Shown here: piece after piece, positions 17,076 through 23,173 of the stretch
How the letters are laid out: every line of letters starts with the position of its first letter
Position numbering within the stretch: the first letter of the stretch is position 1
Sequence record: SRR20825006_498
Strand: one strand, 5' to 3'
Length of the DNA stretch: 28,667 nucleotides
The notes under the pieces: generated by a model
What the model was told of the DNA's origin: nothing
Database searches by the model: none
The model's input: the letters and a program-made list of their open reading frames with translations, nothing else
Translations under genes and position numbers: made by a program

Positions 17076-17276
17076 TCTCTAGTCTCTCGTCCGAATTGCG
17101 CGGATCTCACGGACTGGGTTGTCATTGATATGTCCGAAGGTCACCGGCCCCAAAGTCCCGCGACGACCGTTCCCTTGCCCAGACATTCTCGTATGAACAT
17201 GTTGGACTCTGCCACGCAGTCGCCCAAATCATCAGTTGCATTACCGCATTTTGGACACAGATTTTAGTCCCCGCCC

Positions 17277-17293
17277 TGTGGCATTTTGGCACA
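17277..17293. promoter_or_regulatory. RegR/ActR/PrrA-like binding site upstream of cyoA
   Basis: TGTGGCATTTTGGCACA loosely resembles the GNGRC-N5-GNCRC imperfect palindrome of this regulator family. Confidence 0.5.
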
Positions 17294-17605
17294 AGGGCAG
17301 CGGCCCGTCACCTTGGCAGGCGATTTTTTACACCAAATAAGTGAAATTTTGTGCAGACCTGGCAATCATCAACCTCCCCCACAGCCGAAAACCATTACTC
17401 AAAGCATATCGCATTGACTTCGCTCAAATGTGGCGATTTCAAAAAAACAGGCGATCTTTCCTGCGCCGCCAGAAAAACGGGCCATTTCAAAGCGAACCAT
17501 TCTGACAGCTCAAGCGTATTGTTTTTCAGGAATATATGATGGCCGTCTCCTGCCGATACGAAATGGTTGCGATGCAACGACTGGTTAGACAGTTCGATTT
17601 TTTTA

Positions 17606-17638
17606 TGCGACAATCCGCCACATGCGACAAAATGCGCA
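17606..17638. promoter_or_regulatory. Tandem RegR/ActR/PrrA-like boxes
   Basis: TGCGACAATCCGCCACA (17606-17622) immediately followed by TGCGACAAAATGCGCA (17623-17638). Confidence 0.5.
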
Positions 17639-17663
17639 TGTGTCGTTTTGAGGAGGAAACGAA

Positions 17664-18071
17664 ATGACAGGCCTGTTTTTCTTTCCCTATGTAACAAGCG
17701 CCATTGGCGTTTTGTTGGGGGTATATCTGACCAATTCAAACCGAACCTATGACCGTCGGGACTATTTCCTGCGCGCCTGCTTCATCTTTCTGATCAATCT
17801 TGTGATCTCCTATCTTCTGGAGTTTGCATTTCCTCTGGAAGCCGGCACCAATACCGATATTGCGCTGTCAACGGCATATTACATGGGTCTTGCAACCTAT
17901 GCTGTTGTTCCGGGTCTGGCCTTTGGCCGCTTCACAGCCTTTCGCGCCCGCGACATGGGCCACGACAAATCGGTCGCCTACTGGAGCGCAATCCCGTTTG
18001 TCTTCATTTATTTCATGGTCGTTCCCAGCAAGCGCGGTGACCACCACCCCTCCGCCCATCCTGCGGCCTGA
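17664..18071 (+). CDS. Small membrane protein, DUF805 (YhaH)-like
   Basis: Strong RBS GAGGAGG; several TM segments; RRDYF and RARDMG...IPFV...PS resemble the DUF805 pattern. Confidence 0.7.
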   Translation: MTGLFFFPYVTSAIGVLLGVYLTNSNRTYDRRDYFLRACFIFLINLVISYLLEFAFPLEAGTNTDIALSTAYYMGLATYAVVPGLAFGRFTAFRARDMGHDKSVAYWSAIPFVFIYFMVVPSKRGDHHPSAHPAA

Positions 18072-18108
18072 AACGATCAACATCAACCTATGAATGAGTC
18101 GCGAACAC

Positions 18109-18134
18109 GCCGGTAAAGCCCTTGCTTTACCGGC
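18109..18134. terminator. Perfect 11-bp hairpin, probable terminator
   Basis: GCCGGTAAAGC-CCTT-GCTTTACCGGC followed by ATTCTT. Confidence 0.65.
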
Positions 18135-18448
18135 ATTCTTCTGCCTGCAACCGCGCCAGGGCGGTGCCTCACCGCCGCGTTTAACCTCAGTCAGTCAGAG
18201 CGGTTGCTTTTTCTGCCGACCGGCCTTTCAATGGCATCGATGAATGCGATATCCGAGCATCGTCTGGCAAAAAACCATTTAATCGTTTTAAAAAGGGATT
18301 ATAGTTGCGCCGATGGAAAGCCGCTGCTTTTCCGTTTTAATCGGTTCACGAAACTGCTCTATCGTTTCGCCATTTCGCCAAAGGACGGCGGGCAAGGCAT
18401 CCGCCTTTCGCCGGAAAGACGCTTCAAGATTTACAGGGAGCCACAGAT

Positions 18449-20074
18449 ATGAATGCCACCCTTCAGGACATCCGGGCCGCAGCTGACAGAACCAGCGCGA
18501 CCGACCTTCGCGCCGCTTTCGACGCCGATCCCGATCGTTTTTCTCACTTCAGCCTGCGCTTCGAAGACCTGCTGATGGATTTTTCAAAGACGGCGATCAA
18601 CAGCGAGGTTCTGGCGCTTCTGATGAAGCTTGCCAGGGAAACCGGCGTTGAAGAGAAACGTGAAGCCATGTTCTCCGGCGAGAAAATCAACATCACCGAA
18701 GATCGCGCGGTATTGCATACCGCGCTGCGCAACCGGGCCAATACGCCAGTTATGGTGGACGGCAAGGACGTCATGCCCGACGTCAATGCCGTGCTGGAAG
18801 CGATGGGCGCATTTGCAGAAGGCATCCGCTCCGGGACAACCAAAGGCGCGACCGGCAAGGCGTTTACCGATGTCGTCAATATCGGTATCGGCGGCTCGGA
18901 TCTCGGCCCGGCAATGACGACGCTGGCACTGGCGCCCTTCCATGACGGCCCGAAGCTGCATTATGTCTCCAATATCGACGGCGCCCATATCGCCGATACG
19001 ATCAAGGATCTCGATCCGGCAAAGACGCTGTTTATCGTCGCGTCGAAAACCTTCACCACCATTGAAACCATGACCAACGCCCGGACCGCACGCAAATTCA
19101 TTGCCGATGCGCTTGGCGAGGATGCGGTTGGCCACCACTTCTGTGCAGTGTCGACAGCACTCGACAAGGTTGCCGATTTCGGCATCGACAGCACCCGTGT
19201 TTTCGGGTTCTGGGATTGGGTCGGCGGTCGTTACTCCATCTGGTCGGCGATCGGCCTTCCGCTGATGATTGCCGTCGGTGCGGATAATTTCGGCAAGTTC
19301 CTTGATGGCGCTCATGCCATCGACAAGCACTTTCAGGAAGCACCGATCACCGAAAACCTGCCCTTCATGCTCGGCCTGATCGGATATTATCAGCGCGTTG
19401 TGCTGGATTATCCCTCGCGCGCGGTCATTCCCTATGACCAGCGCATGGCACGTTTTGCCGCCTATCTGCAGCAGCTCGACATGGAGAGCAACGGCAAGTC
19501 GGTCACGATCGGCTCCGAAGACGTGACCACGCCGACCGGGCCGATTGTCTGGGGTGAACCGGGCACCAATGGTCAGCACGCTTTCTTCCAACTTCTCCAT
19601 CAGGGCACCAATGTCATCCCGATCGAATTCATGATTGCCGCCAATGGCCACGAGGCAGACCTGCGTCACCAGCATCAGCTTTTGATGGCCAATTGCCTGG
19701 CCCAGTCCGAAGCGCTGATGAAAGGTCGCACACTGGAAGAGGCCAGGGCACAGCTTCTGGCCAAGGGCGCTGATGAGGCAGAAGCAGACAAGATCGGGCC
19801 GCACCGCGTCTTCACCGGCAACCGCCCGTCGATCACATTTGTCTATGACAGCCTGACGCCCTACGCGCTTGGCCGGATGATCGCGCTTTATGAGCACCGC
19901 GTGTTCGTCGAAGGCGCTCTGTTCGGCATTAATTCGTTTGACCAGTGGGGCGTGGAGCTTGGCAAGGAACTGGCGACAGGTCTGCTGCCGGTTGTCTCCG
20001 GCCAGGAAAGCGCTGATGGCCACGATTCCTCGACTGCTGGCCTTGTTTCGACCCTGCTTGGCATGGCGACGTAA
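18449..20074 (+). CDS. pgi: Glucose-6-phosphate isomerase
   Basis: [46 protein letters not shown]. Confidence 0.98.
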
Positions 20075-20096
20075 AGTCTGCTCGTCAGGACAGATC

Positions 20097-20136
20097 AAAC
20101 GCCGCGTCTATCTTTATAGGCGCGGCGTTTTTTATT
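20097..20136. terminator. Intrinsic terminator of pgi, probably bidirectional
   Basis: AAACGCCGCGTCTA-N6-TAGGCGCGGCGTTT followed by TTTATT. Confidence 0.85.
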
Positions 20137-20153
20137 GATCTCAAAAGGTATTT

Positions 20154-20408
20154 TTAATTGTTCTGCTGATTGGCCAGTTCATACTGATAAATCAGCTTCA
20201 GGGATTTGTCTGGCTGAACCTGAAATACATTCGCGTATTTTGTGCCGAATTTGCCCGTCGTATCGATTGTGACCTTGCTGCCGACAGGTGACTTCACAAG
20301 CTTGCCGGTCTTCGGAACGGCTGTTGGATCCTTGATATATGGCTCTGCGAAAGAGGGCATTGCAGCAACGGCAACCAGAATAGCGGTCGCAATTGTCAGT
20401 TTCTTCAT
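20154..20408 (-). CDS. Small secreted hypothetical protein, array copy D (84 aa, basic)
   Basis: Start ATG 20408 after GGAGAAG; signal peptide MKKLTIA...PSFA; homologous to its three neighbours (VPKTG...PVGS.V.I...FG...N...V..D.SL). Confidence 0.85.
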   Translation of the reverse strand: MKKLTIATAILVAVAAMPSFAEPYIKDPTAVPKTGKLVKSPVGSKVTIDTTGKFGTKYANVFQVQPDKSLKLIYQYELANQQNN

Positions 20409-20534
20409 TCTACTTCTCCAAGTTTTAAAGAACATACGACCTTTACGAAACATCAAGGATTCCAGTTTCAATTAAAACGTGGTTTTGCTGTGATCGCACC
20501 GCTCACTTTGTCTTGAAGTTCTTGTGAAGACAGA

Positions 20535-20771
20535 TCAGTTCTCGTTCGTGTTCACGGGATACTGAGCGACAAGCTTCAAAGTGCGATCCGGCTGAACGCG
20601 AAAGACATTTTGATATTCCCCACCGAACTTGCCGGTACCCTGAATGGTGACTGTACTGCCAATCGGCGCTTTACTGACCTTTCCGGTCTTTGGAACTGCC
20701 GAATAGTCAATCGCATAGGCTCCAGGTGCAACCAGCAAAGCCATAGCCATGAAGATAGCCAACAATCGCAT
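20535..20771 (-). CDS. Small secreted hypothetical protein, array copy C (78 aa, basic)
   Basis: AGGAG RBS 7 nt before ATG 20771; signal peptide ending AYA; shared family motif. Confidence 0.87.
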   Translation of the reverse strand: MRLLAIFMAMALLVAPGAYAIDYSAVPKTGKVSKAPIGSTVTIQGTGKFGGEYQNVFRVQPDRTLKLVAQYPVNTNEN

Positions 20772-20795
20772 CACGTTTCTCCTTTTTATGATCGC

Positions 20796-20827
20796 AAAAA
20801 AAGCGGGCGGCCCGAGCCACCCACTTT
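20796..20827 (-). terminator. Intrinsic terminator inside the array, between copies B and C
   Basis: Minus strand AAAGTGGGTGGC-TCGG-GCCGCCCGC-TTTTTTT. Confidence 0.8.
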
Positions 20828-20857
20828 ATAATCCGTATCCGATCAAAAGAAGGCCGA

Positions 20858-21091
20858 TCAGTTACCGACGCTGTCCTGGAAAACGAAATTCAGTGTTCCG
20901 TCTTCACCCACACGGTAGTAGTTCACGTGCTTCGTACCGAACTGGTCAGTGGATTCGATGGTAACGGGGGAACCGGCCGGTGCCTTGGTCAACGTGCCGG
21001 TCTGCGGAAGAGCGTTCGGCTGGACAGCAAAGGCTGCAGGCGCAACGGCGAGACCGGCGACGACGGCAGTGATTGCAAAAAGATTTTTCAT
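20858..21091 (-). CDS. Small secreted hypothetical protein, array copy B (77 aa, acidic)
   Basis: AAGGA RBS; signal peptide ending AFA; 61/77 residues identical to copy A by manual alignment. Confidence 0.9.
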   Translation of the reverse strand: MKNLFAITAVVAGLAVAPAAFAVQPNALPQTGTLTKAPAGSPVTIESTDQFGTKHVNYYRVGEDGTLNFVFQDSVGN

Positions 21092-21186
21092 GGTGTGTTT
21101 CCTTGATGCCAGCCGTTTTGATTTTTTAGGAGGCTGGCCTGGTTGTTTTTAATTTATTTGATCATGCTTCAGCAAAGATCGCCCGA

Positions 21187-21420
21187 TCAGTCGCCAGTGC
21201 CTTCCTGGAATACGAATTCCAGCGAACCATCTTCAGCAACGCGGTAGTAATTCATGTACTTCGTGCCAAACTGGTCGCGCGCTTCGATATTGACCATGGA
21301 TCCAGCCGGAGCCTTGGTCAGTGTGCCGGTGTCCGGCAGAGCGTTGGGCTGAACTGCGAAGGCTGCAGGGGCGGCAGCGAGACCGGCAGCAACAGCGGTG
21401 ATTGCAAAAAGATTTTTCAT
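21187..21420 (-). CDS. Small secreted hypothetical protein, array copy A (77 aa, acidic)
   Basis: AGGAG RBS 6 nt before ATG 21420; signal peptide ending AFA; first 23 nt identical to copy B. Confidence 0.9.
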   Translation of the reverse strand: MKNLFAITAVAAGLAAAPAAFAVQPNALPDTGTLTKAPAGSMVNIEARDQFGTKYMNYYRVAEDGSLEFVFQEGTGD

Positions 21421-21468
21421 CATTCTCTCCTGTGAACAGAAACTCTGTCTGTTGTTCGATGACCGGGA

Positions 21469-21496
21469 GATATGATTTGATCGAATGATTAACAAG
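21469..21496 (-). promoter_or_regulatory. Candidate promoter of the array with a dyad in the spacer
   Basis: Minus strand CTTGTT-N16-CATATC, resembling rhizobial sigma70/sigma32 promoters; imperfect palindrome TTAATCA-TT-CGATCAA (21477-21492). Confidence 0.45.
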
Positions 21497-21815
21497 TCTC
21501 AGAATGACGAATTTAGTGTTCGTTTTTCGTTGACAATAAACCTCTTGAAATCATAGCAACACTTCGTATGCAGATTGAAAATCATTATTTTTCAATAACT
21601 TCATGACCCTGTCCAATCGCCGGAAAGTCTCCCTAAACAAACCACTTTCCAGGGTATCACGTCGAAGTTATCGGCTTTTTTTTTACCTTCAACCTGCCTT
21701 GACGGTTCCAGGTCATCATGCAAAACCGACCTTCCAATACGTTACTGCGCATATTTGCAGATTATGGATTGTTGAACACTAGGCTCAATGTGTGATGCCG
21801 ACATACCGCACATAC

Positions 21816-21840
21816 AAAAAACCCGGCGCTTGGCGCCGGG
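21816..21840 (-). terminator. Intrinsic terminator of tal
   Basis: Minus strand CCCGGCGC-CAA-GCGCCGGG-TTTTTT. Confidence 0.85.
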
Positions 21841-21878
21841 CTTTGAGAAAAAGTGGTCCTGATACAAATTTCCAAGAA

Positions 21879-22835
21879 TCAGACGTCGAGTTTTTCTGCA
21901 ACGATGGTGCGCAGTTTGCCAAGATCCTTGGCAAAATTACGGATACCTTCGGCAAGCTTTTCCGTCGCCATGGCATCTTCGTTCATCATCCACCGGAAAG
22001 TTTGTTCGTCCATCTTGATCTTCGGTTCCGGCTCGAATGTTTCAGGCGAAAGCTTGCGCTCCAGCGGGCCTTCATCATTGGCCAGCTCTTCCAGCAGGTT
22101 CGGCGAAATAGTCAGGCGGTCACAACCGGCCAGACCTTCGATTTCACCTGTGTTGCGGAACGACGCGCCCATGACAACCGTATCAATGCCATTTGCCTTG
22201 TAATAATTGTAGATCGAACGAACGGAAACAACGCCCGGATCCGTTTCAGATGTGTATTCTTCGCCGGTGGCATTCTTGTACCAGTCAAGGATACGACCTA
22301 CGAACGGCGAGATCAGGAACGCGCCCGCATCGGCGCAGGCAATAGCCTGGCACTTGGAGAACAGAAGCGTCAGGTTGCAGTCAATGCCTTCCTTCTGCAG
22401 CACTTCACAGGCTCGGATACCTTCCCATGTGGAAGCGAGTTTGATGAGAATCCGTTCACGGCCGATGCCGCGCGCTTCATAAGCCTTGATGATTTCGTGC
22501 GCCTTGGCAATCGAGCCTTCCATGTTGAAGGAAAGATCGGCGTCGACCTCTGTGGAAACGCGTCCGGGAACAATATCGACAAGTGCCGCGCCAACATCAA
22601 TGGCCAGACGGCTGGCAACGGCATCGACAACGGCTTCTTTCGAACCGGACTGGGCTTTGCCCCATTTGATCGCTTCTTCGATCTTGTCATCAAACATGTC
22701 GGTCGACAGCGCTTTGAGAACAATCGATGGATTGGTCGTGCAATCGACGGGTTTCAGTTTTGTAACGGCTTTGATATCGCCGGTATCGGCCACAACCGTG
22801 GTCATTTCGCGCAATTGGTCAAGTTTGGAAGCCAT
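21879..22835 (-). CDS. tal: Transaldolase
   Basis: [25 protein letters not shown] (Schiff-base Lys), [15 protein letters not shown]; start ATG 22835 after AAGGA. Confidence 0.97.
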
Positions 22836-23173
22836 GATATTCATCCTTCGTAATCTGGGCCATTTCCGTTTCCTCCGCGAAGTGGAAAGAAAGGCCACAC
22901 TGCTTGAATAACGCCCGGCGGCAAAAGAGCCACCTCCCGCGCATTTGGAATTACCGATATCGCGCCGCGATGATATTTCAATGACTGTTCGCAAACATCG
23001 ACGCGGGAAGCAAGCCCGAAACCGATCGCTATCGTACGTACCGGCACGTCCGGACGCCTATTCGGGCTGTTTCACCTTATCAATCGATTTAGGTATTACC
23101 TTGATGGCGCTCAACCCGCAGTCAAAAAAAGTGATCGGTCACGCATCCGGCATCGGCATGACCGAAGCGCCGG

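Follow-up and report, generated by a model that had tools for sequence, protein, structure and literature searches.

What are four tiny proteins with export signals, encoded side by side between pgi and tal, and what might they do? The question is raised by positions 20,154 to 21,420 of a 28,667-nucleotide (nt) stretch of DNA from sequence record SRR20825006_498. The whole stretch is referred to here as the window. The original prediction, made without database searches, had described this region as an array of four paralogous genes of no recognised family. The analysis reported here identifies the four products, copies A to D, as a soluble, Martelella-specific branch of a wider unnamed family of proteins of 75–103 amino acids (aa), which is confined to part of the Rhizobiaceae. 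As to their role, we infer, with a probability of roughly 0.4, that they are abundant non-enzymatic periplasmic envelope proteins of a stress or homeostasis type.

The four genes and their products

All four genes lie on the minus strand in the same orientation. Copy A (21187–21420) and copy B (20858–21091) each encode 77 aa, and copy A has an alternative ATG three bases upstream. Copy C (20535–20774) encodes 79 aa if it starts at a GTG and 78 aa if it starts at the neighbouring ATG (20771), and copy D (20154–20408) encodes 84 aa and has a C-terminal tail rich in asparagine and glutamine. Each gene is preceded by a Shine-Dalgarno sequence of the GGAG/AGGA type, so that the co-oriented genes of 77–84 aa with individual ribosome-binding sites that had been described are found in the reading frames and their leaders. 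Copies A and B are identical at 61 of 77 positions; C and D are more diverged, resemble each other (45 of 76) and share ~40–48% identity with A and B. The 61/77 identity and the likeness of C to D had been stated before, and the consensus pattern given with them agrees with the 20 columns that are invariant when the four are aligned. The similarity is far above chance: relatives in other genomes are matched with E-values of 1e-19 to 1e-46.

The N-termini of A to D, as read from the sequence, have a basic start (MKN, MKK or MR), a hydrophobic core of 12–15 residues and a small-x-A cleavage-like site, which is AFA in A and B, AYA in C and SFA in D. In copy A the signal-peptide-like part covers residues 1–22 and ends in AAFA, followed by VQ. 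All four thus carry the features of substrates of general secretory (Sec) export and signal peptidase I, namely a basic n-region, an h-region and small residues at −3 and −1, and are predicted to be exported and cleaved to ~6–7 kDa. The mature parts comprise 55 (A), 55 (B), 58 (C) and 63 aa (D) and contain no cysteine, which bears out the Sec-type signal peptides and cysteine-free mature domains of the original prediction. Histidine is absent from A, C and D, and mature C also lacks methionine. The isoelectric points (pI) of the mature proteins are 4.4 (A), 4.8 (B), 9.5 (C) and 9.5 (D). Pairing of acidic A/B with basic C/D into a heteromer has been considered and rejected as a general feature because most Martelella arrays hold acidic or near-neutral copies alone; across the other arrays of the genus, nearly all copies fall into these two classes.

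The count of four copies covers the window of this strain. Contigs from four public sequencing runs carry near-identical DNA of this region in other samples. One crude-oil metagenome contig (X6) joins position 21431 back to 21185, with a side of 44 letters. An additional A-like copy in that population would explain the join, but a single contig is weak evidence.

A widespread unnamed family

The wider family has emerged from successively deeper profile searches. A word-indexed search with copy A returned five proteins among 18 candidates, and the same search with copy D returned copy D alone. A HMMER scan of 1.84 billion representative sequences with a 9-sequence profile gave 33 clusters at E ≤ 0.001. 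About half of these are exported proteins of 75–92 aa; the others are long repetitive immunoglobulin (Ig)-like or beta-propeller proteins, whose scores are summed over 5–20 weak stretches and which are read as motif-level likeness. Scans of genomes from the same family in GTDB added relatives of 79–103 aa with the core 'EPIPGSITYGGQPRTKLTKAPVGS..H.F.D.FG...ETY.I.PDRSL.LV.R'. With a 37-sequence profile, 1328 clusters at 90% identity were matched, and the family holds at least 1328 such clusters. The genera named among them are Rhizobium, Shinella, Ensifer, Pararhizobium, Neorhizobium, Pseudorhizobium and Ciceribacter. Database annotations call them hypothetical protein, lipoprotein, transmembrane protein or membrane protein throughout, and the stray names include 'opacity protein-like surface antigen' and 'DUF1236 domain-containing protein'.

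In an alignment of 147 sequences, which includes the four window copies, P38, G40 and S41 never vary, and conservation reaches 90% or more at P25, G32, L34, K36, G52, Y59, D64, S66 and L67. In profile comparisons, distant members match the Martelella copies with E-values of 1e-11 to 1e-7. Copies A to D share with the rest of the family a length within 75–103 aa, an export signal (signal peptide or lipobox), the K-x-P-x-G-S motif, the F/Y-G turn and the D-x-S-L turn. Many relatives carry a lipoprotein signal: a simple lipobox pattern is present in 24 of 40 located relatives, an L-x-x-C has been seen by eye in some others, and the Pfam lipobox model LPAM_1 matches 34 of the 147 members at E ≤ 10. 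By contrast, both the lipobox and the 'PGSITY' segment are missing from the Martelella copies, which in most arrays are acidic and which have been amplified throughout the genus under a promoter element of their own. A further difference concerns positions 45 and 57 (copy A numbering), a cross-strand pair which is often His/Glu in the wider family and is Ile/Val and Asn in Martelella; this may reflect a lost ligand or metal site.

The novelty claimed for the array therefore holds in part. No named family in Pfam or NCBIfam matches the four proteins, but the genes are not isolated, as they form one branch of a widespread unnamed family. Literature searches, at the level of listings and abstracts, returned no published account of this family.

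Distribution and tandem amplification

Matches to the deep profile at E ≤ 1e-5 occur in 21 of 121 genomes of the GTDB family. In a sample of the class, in which fewer candidates per genome were scored, none of the 300 genomes beyond the centre genome (G001) has one. All 14 Martelella genomes carry tandem arrays, with 2–6 copies per array, and two of them hold several arrays, with 12 and 9 matches. The position of the array has been examined at 14 loci (13 retrieved loci and L001). Ten adjoin tal, seven of these with pgi on the other side, and four lie elsewhere.

Tandem copies are also found outside Martelella. One unrelated genome of the GTDB family (L052, 4871–6021, minus strand) has four near-identical copies of the signal-peptide type with a period of 300 bp, flanked by a 141-aa open reading frame (ORF) and by a second ORF followed by an ilvC-like gene, as judged by eye from the translations. 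This array looks like an independent recent amplification. In Sinorhizobium meliloti Ak57 (L033, 3626–4228, plus strand) there is a tandem pair of lipoproteins, LZK74_26965 and LZK74_26970, annotated as hypothetical; the record, CP090106.1, is titled pSymB, yet at 3.72 Mb it is chromosome-sized. Given the arrays in Martelella, the array in L052 and the S. meliloti pair, tandem amplification has arisen repeatedly in the family. Some Martelella arrays contain identical or near-identical copies (L038, L036/L037). Such copies, in L038 as in L052, fit selection for dosage.

Selection on the array

The closest public genome, that of Martelella mediterranea strain 175.2, carries six copies at the corresponding tal-to-pgi locus: one C, one D and four of the A/B type. 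Nonsynonymous (dN) and synonymous (dS) divergence between the window genes and their M. mediterranea orthologues has been estimated by the Nei-Gojobori method. The dN/dS ratio is 0.06 for A (dN 0.038, dS 0.64), 0.074 for B (dN 0.054, dS 0.73) and 0.096 for C (dN 0.159), where the dS of 1.66 is near saturation. In D, dN is 0.22 and dS is saturated, so that no ratio can be computed. Between the paralogues A and B the ratio is 0.126 (dN 0.134, dS 1.06). The flanking genes give a dN of 0.050 and a ratio of 0.038 for pgi, and a dN of 0.027 and a ratio of 0.030 for tal.

The array genes are thus under purifying selection, with orthologue ratios of 0.06–0.10. A ratio near 1 had been named beforehand as an argument against function, and the measured values are far from it. 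The dN of A and B is close to that of pgi and tal, and protein-level constraint on these two copies is therefore about equal to that on their housekeeping neighbours; C and D diverge several-fold faster than A and B. The dS of A and B (0.64 and 0.73) is lower than that of pgi (18449–20074; 1.30) and of tal over 21879–22841 (0.90), which could be due to codon bias from high expression or to gene conversion.

Predicted structure

Two AlphaFold2 runs, with 37 and 147 aligned sequences, place the same three strands at 42–48, 54–61 and 67–74, in line with the small beta-sheet domain that had been suggested from the pattern of residues. The mean predicted local distance difference test (pLDDT) score is 69 with 37 sequences and 66 with 147, rising to ~75–83 over the strand region. 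The mature domain has no helix in the 37-sequence model and a 3-residue helical turn at 25–27 in the 147-sequence model. The predicted fold, at moderate confidence, is a three-stranded beta-meander. A homodimer prediction, made without use of the alignment, scored 0.02, below the mark of 0.32, and bears neither way on binding.

Conservation can be placed on the predicted sheet. Across 50 Martelella copies, the conserved residues V43, I45, N57, Y/F59, V61, L67 and L/F69 alternate on one predicted face, and variation falls at positions 42, 44, 46, 48, 54, 56 and 68, in the turns and along the C-terminal tail.

Transcription signals

A promoter-like block, CTTGTT(A/G)ATC-N4-GAT(C/T)AAA, lies at 21476–21496 on the minus strand, 56 nt upstream of the ATG of copy A. 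It consists of a −35-like CTTGTT and the palindrome T(A/G)ATC-N4-GAT(T/C)A, followed by an ATATCT/CATATC −10-like box; we interpret it as a promoter of the sigma-70 type with a palindromic operator in its spacer. The block is common to the upstream regions of 14 arrays, including arrays away from tal, and a search of the window that allowed up to 3 mismatches finds no second site. In five Martelella genomes all exact matches lie at arrays, and the element therefore gives no clue to a wider regulon.

Downstream of copy B, an intrinsic-terminator-like hairpin (20796–20827, minus strand) has a 12-bp stem and a U7 run. Its folding energy is −22.4 kcal/mol (z −3.8), and none of 200 shuffled sequences folds as well; a consensus terminator scan does not list it. 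The A–B and C–D spacers contain no comparable terminator. Since a putative promoter precedes A, a terminator-like hairpin follows B and none comparable lies between them, A and B probably form one transcript. A second terminator-like hairpin (20097–20130, scored on the plus strand; 15 pairs, 8 of them GC) lies between the convergent pgi and copy D, and in our own reading also ends the copy D transcript. A third, at 21818–21844 on the minus strand, ends tal and marks the upstream limit of the array control region.

A possible link to stress comes from more distant relatives. RpoE2-dependent promoters are described as having the form GGAAC-N16-17-CGTT (PMC6180224). The related motif GAAC-N16-17-CGTT, of the EcfG/RpoE2 type, is present upstream of five of the 40 located relatives (L019, L029, L072, L075 and L033), compared with one of 40 on the reverse strand, and none of 500 shuffles reaches five. 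Two of the five sites are canonical GGAAC-N17-CGTT, at −70 and −52. This hints that some family members belong to the general stress response.

Genes around the array

The array is flanked on the copy D side by pgi (18449–20074, plus strand) and on the copy A side by tal (21879–22994, minus strand), a TAL_FSA transaldolase gene. The other genes in the window are ordinary chromosomal ones, which include a porin, amino-acid ABC transport genes, quinol oxidase subunits, an Ada-like gene, a DNA glycosylase and malate synthase. The window contains no usher, chaperone or modifying enzyme, and no transporter gene adjoins the array, in line with the original prediction, which had noted none of these nearby. 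At 14 loci of relatives, no neighbour gene is conserved. A stretch of ~1.4 kb between a quinol-oxidase subunit gene and pgi (17076–18448) contains no ORF of at least 150 aa, and an Rfam search of 19900–22000 gave nothing below E 0.17.

Named families examined

Pfam and NCBIfam scans of A to D return no family and at most sub-threshold noise, and Pfam finds no family on 11 distant relatives. Several names have been followed up individually. The DUF1471/McbA model (NF040473) gives 15.3 bits for A and 16.8 for B against a cut-off of 110, with much of the alignment in the signal peptide, and has been rejected. The copper binder CopK (NF033793) reaches 13.6 bits, with copy C alone, against a cut-off of 123. 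The copper ligands of CopK are Met and His, and mature C has neither; this candidate has been rejected as well.

In UniRef, a Martelella endophytica member is named PepSY (PF03413). The Pfam PepSY model, with a cut-off of 24 bits, matches none of the 14 Martelella genomes at E ≤ 0.001, and five control genomes are positive. Also, hmmscan gives no PepSY hit for the window copies or for the M. endophytica protein itself, and PepSY_2 touches one of the 147 members at E 2.7. The name DUF1236, carried by two relatives in UniRef (P0057 and P0086), has been discarded too: hmmscan at E ≤ 10 lists no DUF1236, and it is not among the 25 Pfam families listed for the 147 members.

Structure-based comparisons gave similar results. 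Foldseek found no match in the PDB at E ≤ 0.001, the best of the 48,161 chains compared by VIA-align scored Z 3.6, with nothing at Z ≥ 5, and no ESM Atlas neighbour carries a Pfam family.

What the proteins may do

On the favoured reading, that of abundant envelope proteins, copies A to D would be exported by Sec, cut to ~6–7 kDa and folded as three-stranded beta-meanders. The conserved hydrophobic face of the sheet (V43, I45, N57, Y/F59, V61, L67 and L/F69) would be covered by the K-x-P-x-G-S segment or by a partner, and the variable face would contact an envelope component. Tandem repetition would supply dosage together with surface variants. Several points weigh against this reading. No partner points to a function. 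The AlphaFold models are moderate, with residues 23–41, the N-terminal part of the mature protein, poorly modelled in both runs, and a lone three-stranded sheet is not obviously a stable fold. The EcfG-type motif is absent from the window array and its upstream region and from the upstream regions of the ten window and M. mediterranea copies, so that the link to stress rests on a minority of distant relatives. The charge split between A and B (pI 4.4–4.8) and C and D (~9.5) is not explained by dosage alone. Finally, the variation of the surface from copy to copy would suit an immunity or binding-specificity role equally well.

Such a role could be that of periplasmic inhibitor or immunity proteins, each neutralising a different periplasm-acting enzyme or toxin, such as a lysozyme, a protease or an effector delivered by other bacteria or by phages, with the array as a collection of specificities. 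Diverged small exported paralogues that vary on one sheet face, in the turns and in the tail would be expected of such proteins, and copy number turns over between genomes. The family also has soluble and lipid-anchored forms, as do the PliC/MliC lysozyme inhibitors. We nevertheless consider this explanation unlikely. Arrays are present in all 14 Martelella genomes, and ten of the 14 loci lie beside tal, a core-like rather than accessory pattern; the immunity option is weakened because the arrays sit mostly at one housekeeping locus. Moreover, no toxin, effector or mobile-element gene is present in the window or recurs at the loci of 14 relatives, A and B are under strong purifying selection, and the identical or near-identical copies in several arrays add dosage, not specificities. 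The proteins might instead be small periplasmic ligand binders that act as a buffer or carrier for peptidoglycan, periplasmic glucan, lipopolysaccharide or a metal ion. The conserved polar and aromatic residues K36, S41, N57, Y/F59, D64 and Q72 would suit sugar binding, the His/Glu pair at 45/57 in the wider family could hold a metal at a dimer interface, and the sub-threshold CopK match is a weak lead at most, far below its cut-off. The metal option is disfavoured because no His, Cys or Met is conserved among the Martelella copies, and copies A, C and D are free of His. The genes beside the array include none for transport or metal resistance, and no binding-domain fold is matched. Taken as a whole, ligand binding seems quite unlikely.

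Two further explanations receive little credence. The proteins could act as periplasmic modulators by binding a sensor domain, for instance that of a two-component kinase, and so adjusting the output of the signalling protein. Precedent exists at this size: DbfQ, a small periplasmic protein, is described as modulating a signalling sensor (PMC12714742). The operator-like palindrome of the array itself suggests regulated expression. However, no kinase or regulator gene is adjacent to the array in the window or conserved beside the relatives, and multi-copy arrays and lipoprotein forms would be unusual for modulators of this kind, which makes the explanation improbable. A surface or matrix fibre, amyloid-like or pilus-like, into which the proteins would polymerise as subunits, was among the roles first suggested, as were the ligand or metal binder and the inhibitor or immunity set. 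It would agree with the amphipathic predicted strands, the N/Q-rich tails of C and D and the presence of several paralogues. It is disfavoured because the window has no outer-membrane secretion gene; neither there nor near the relatives is there an usher, a CsgG/FapF-type channel or another gene of that function. Also, the lipoprotein signal on many family members is unsuited to fibre subunits. We regard a fibre as very improbable.

The envelope-protein reading can be taken further, to a version that we hold tentatively. The proteins would be a new family of exported beta-meanders of ~55 aa with a K-x-P-x-G-S clasp and with no relative in Pfam, NCBIfam, the PDB or by fold. The Martelella branch would have lost its lipid anchor, multiplied into arrays throughout the genus under a private promoter governed by an operator, and diverged into acidic and basic forms. 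The family would then act as a stoichiometric envelope-shielding or glycan-binding module specific to the Rhizobiaceae. The Rhizobiaceae, whose envelope biology is only partly understood, include major plant symbionts and pathogens, and an unnamed family of tiny exported proteins, with soluble members and members with a lipoprotein signal, has now been delimited in them. The motifs, the predicted fold, the genus-wide amplification and the candidate operator provide targets for deletion, localisation and structural work.

Comparison with known systems

Three groups of proteins bear some likeness to the array. PepSY is a small exported domain with a beta-meander, and in this respect resembles the array proteins as predicted; it differs from them in that their modelled mature domain shows no helix beyond the 3-residue turn. 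Ig-like adhesin repeats (Lap, PDB 6xi3; Big_13 and Big_6) have the strand-turn-strand motif 'S.V.v..tD..G....t.tV.aDGS..L' in common with the array proteins. The likeness does not go beyond the motif, with a best E of 0.058 against PDB sequences and no significant single stretch. The Big_* models match none of the 147 family members, and a mature protein of 55 aa is too short for the full Ig sandwich of the adhesins, a domain of ~80–100 aa.

The third group is the DUF1471/YhcN family of the Enterobacteriaceae (BhsA, McbA and YdgH), to which the likeness is one of working style, with no homology found. The fold of DUF1471 is alpha/beta, in contrast to the all-beta fold predicted for the array proteins. 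Both have a mature domain of ~55 aa behind a Sec signal and occur as several paralogues per genome, some of them adjacent. Both are also narrow in taxonomic range, include members linked to stress and show no enzymatic motif. If an envelope-protective or glycan-binding role is true, the family would parallel, within its own lineage, the small stress proteins of enterobacteria; otherwise, it provides a curated seed for a new domain family.

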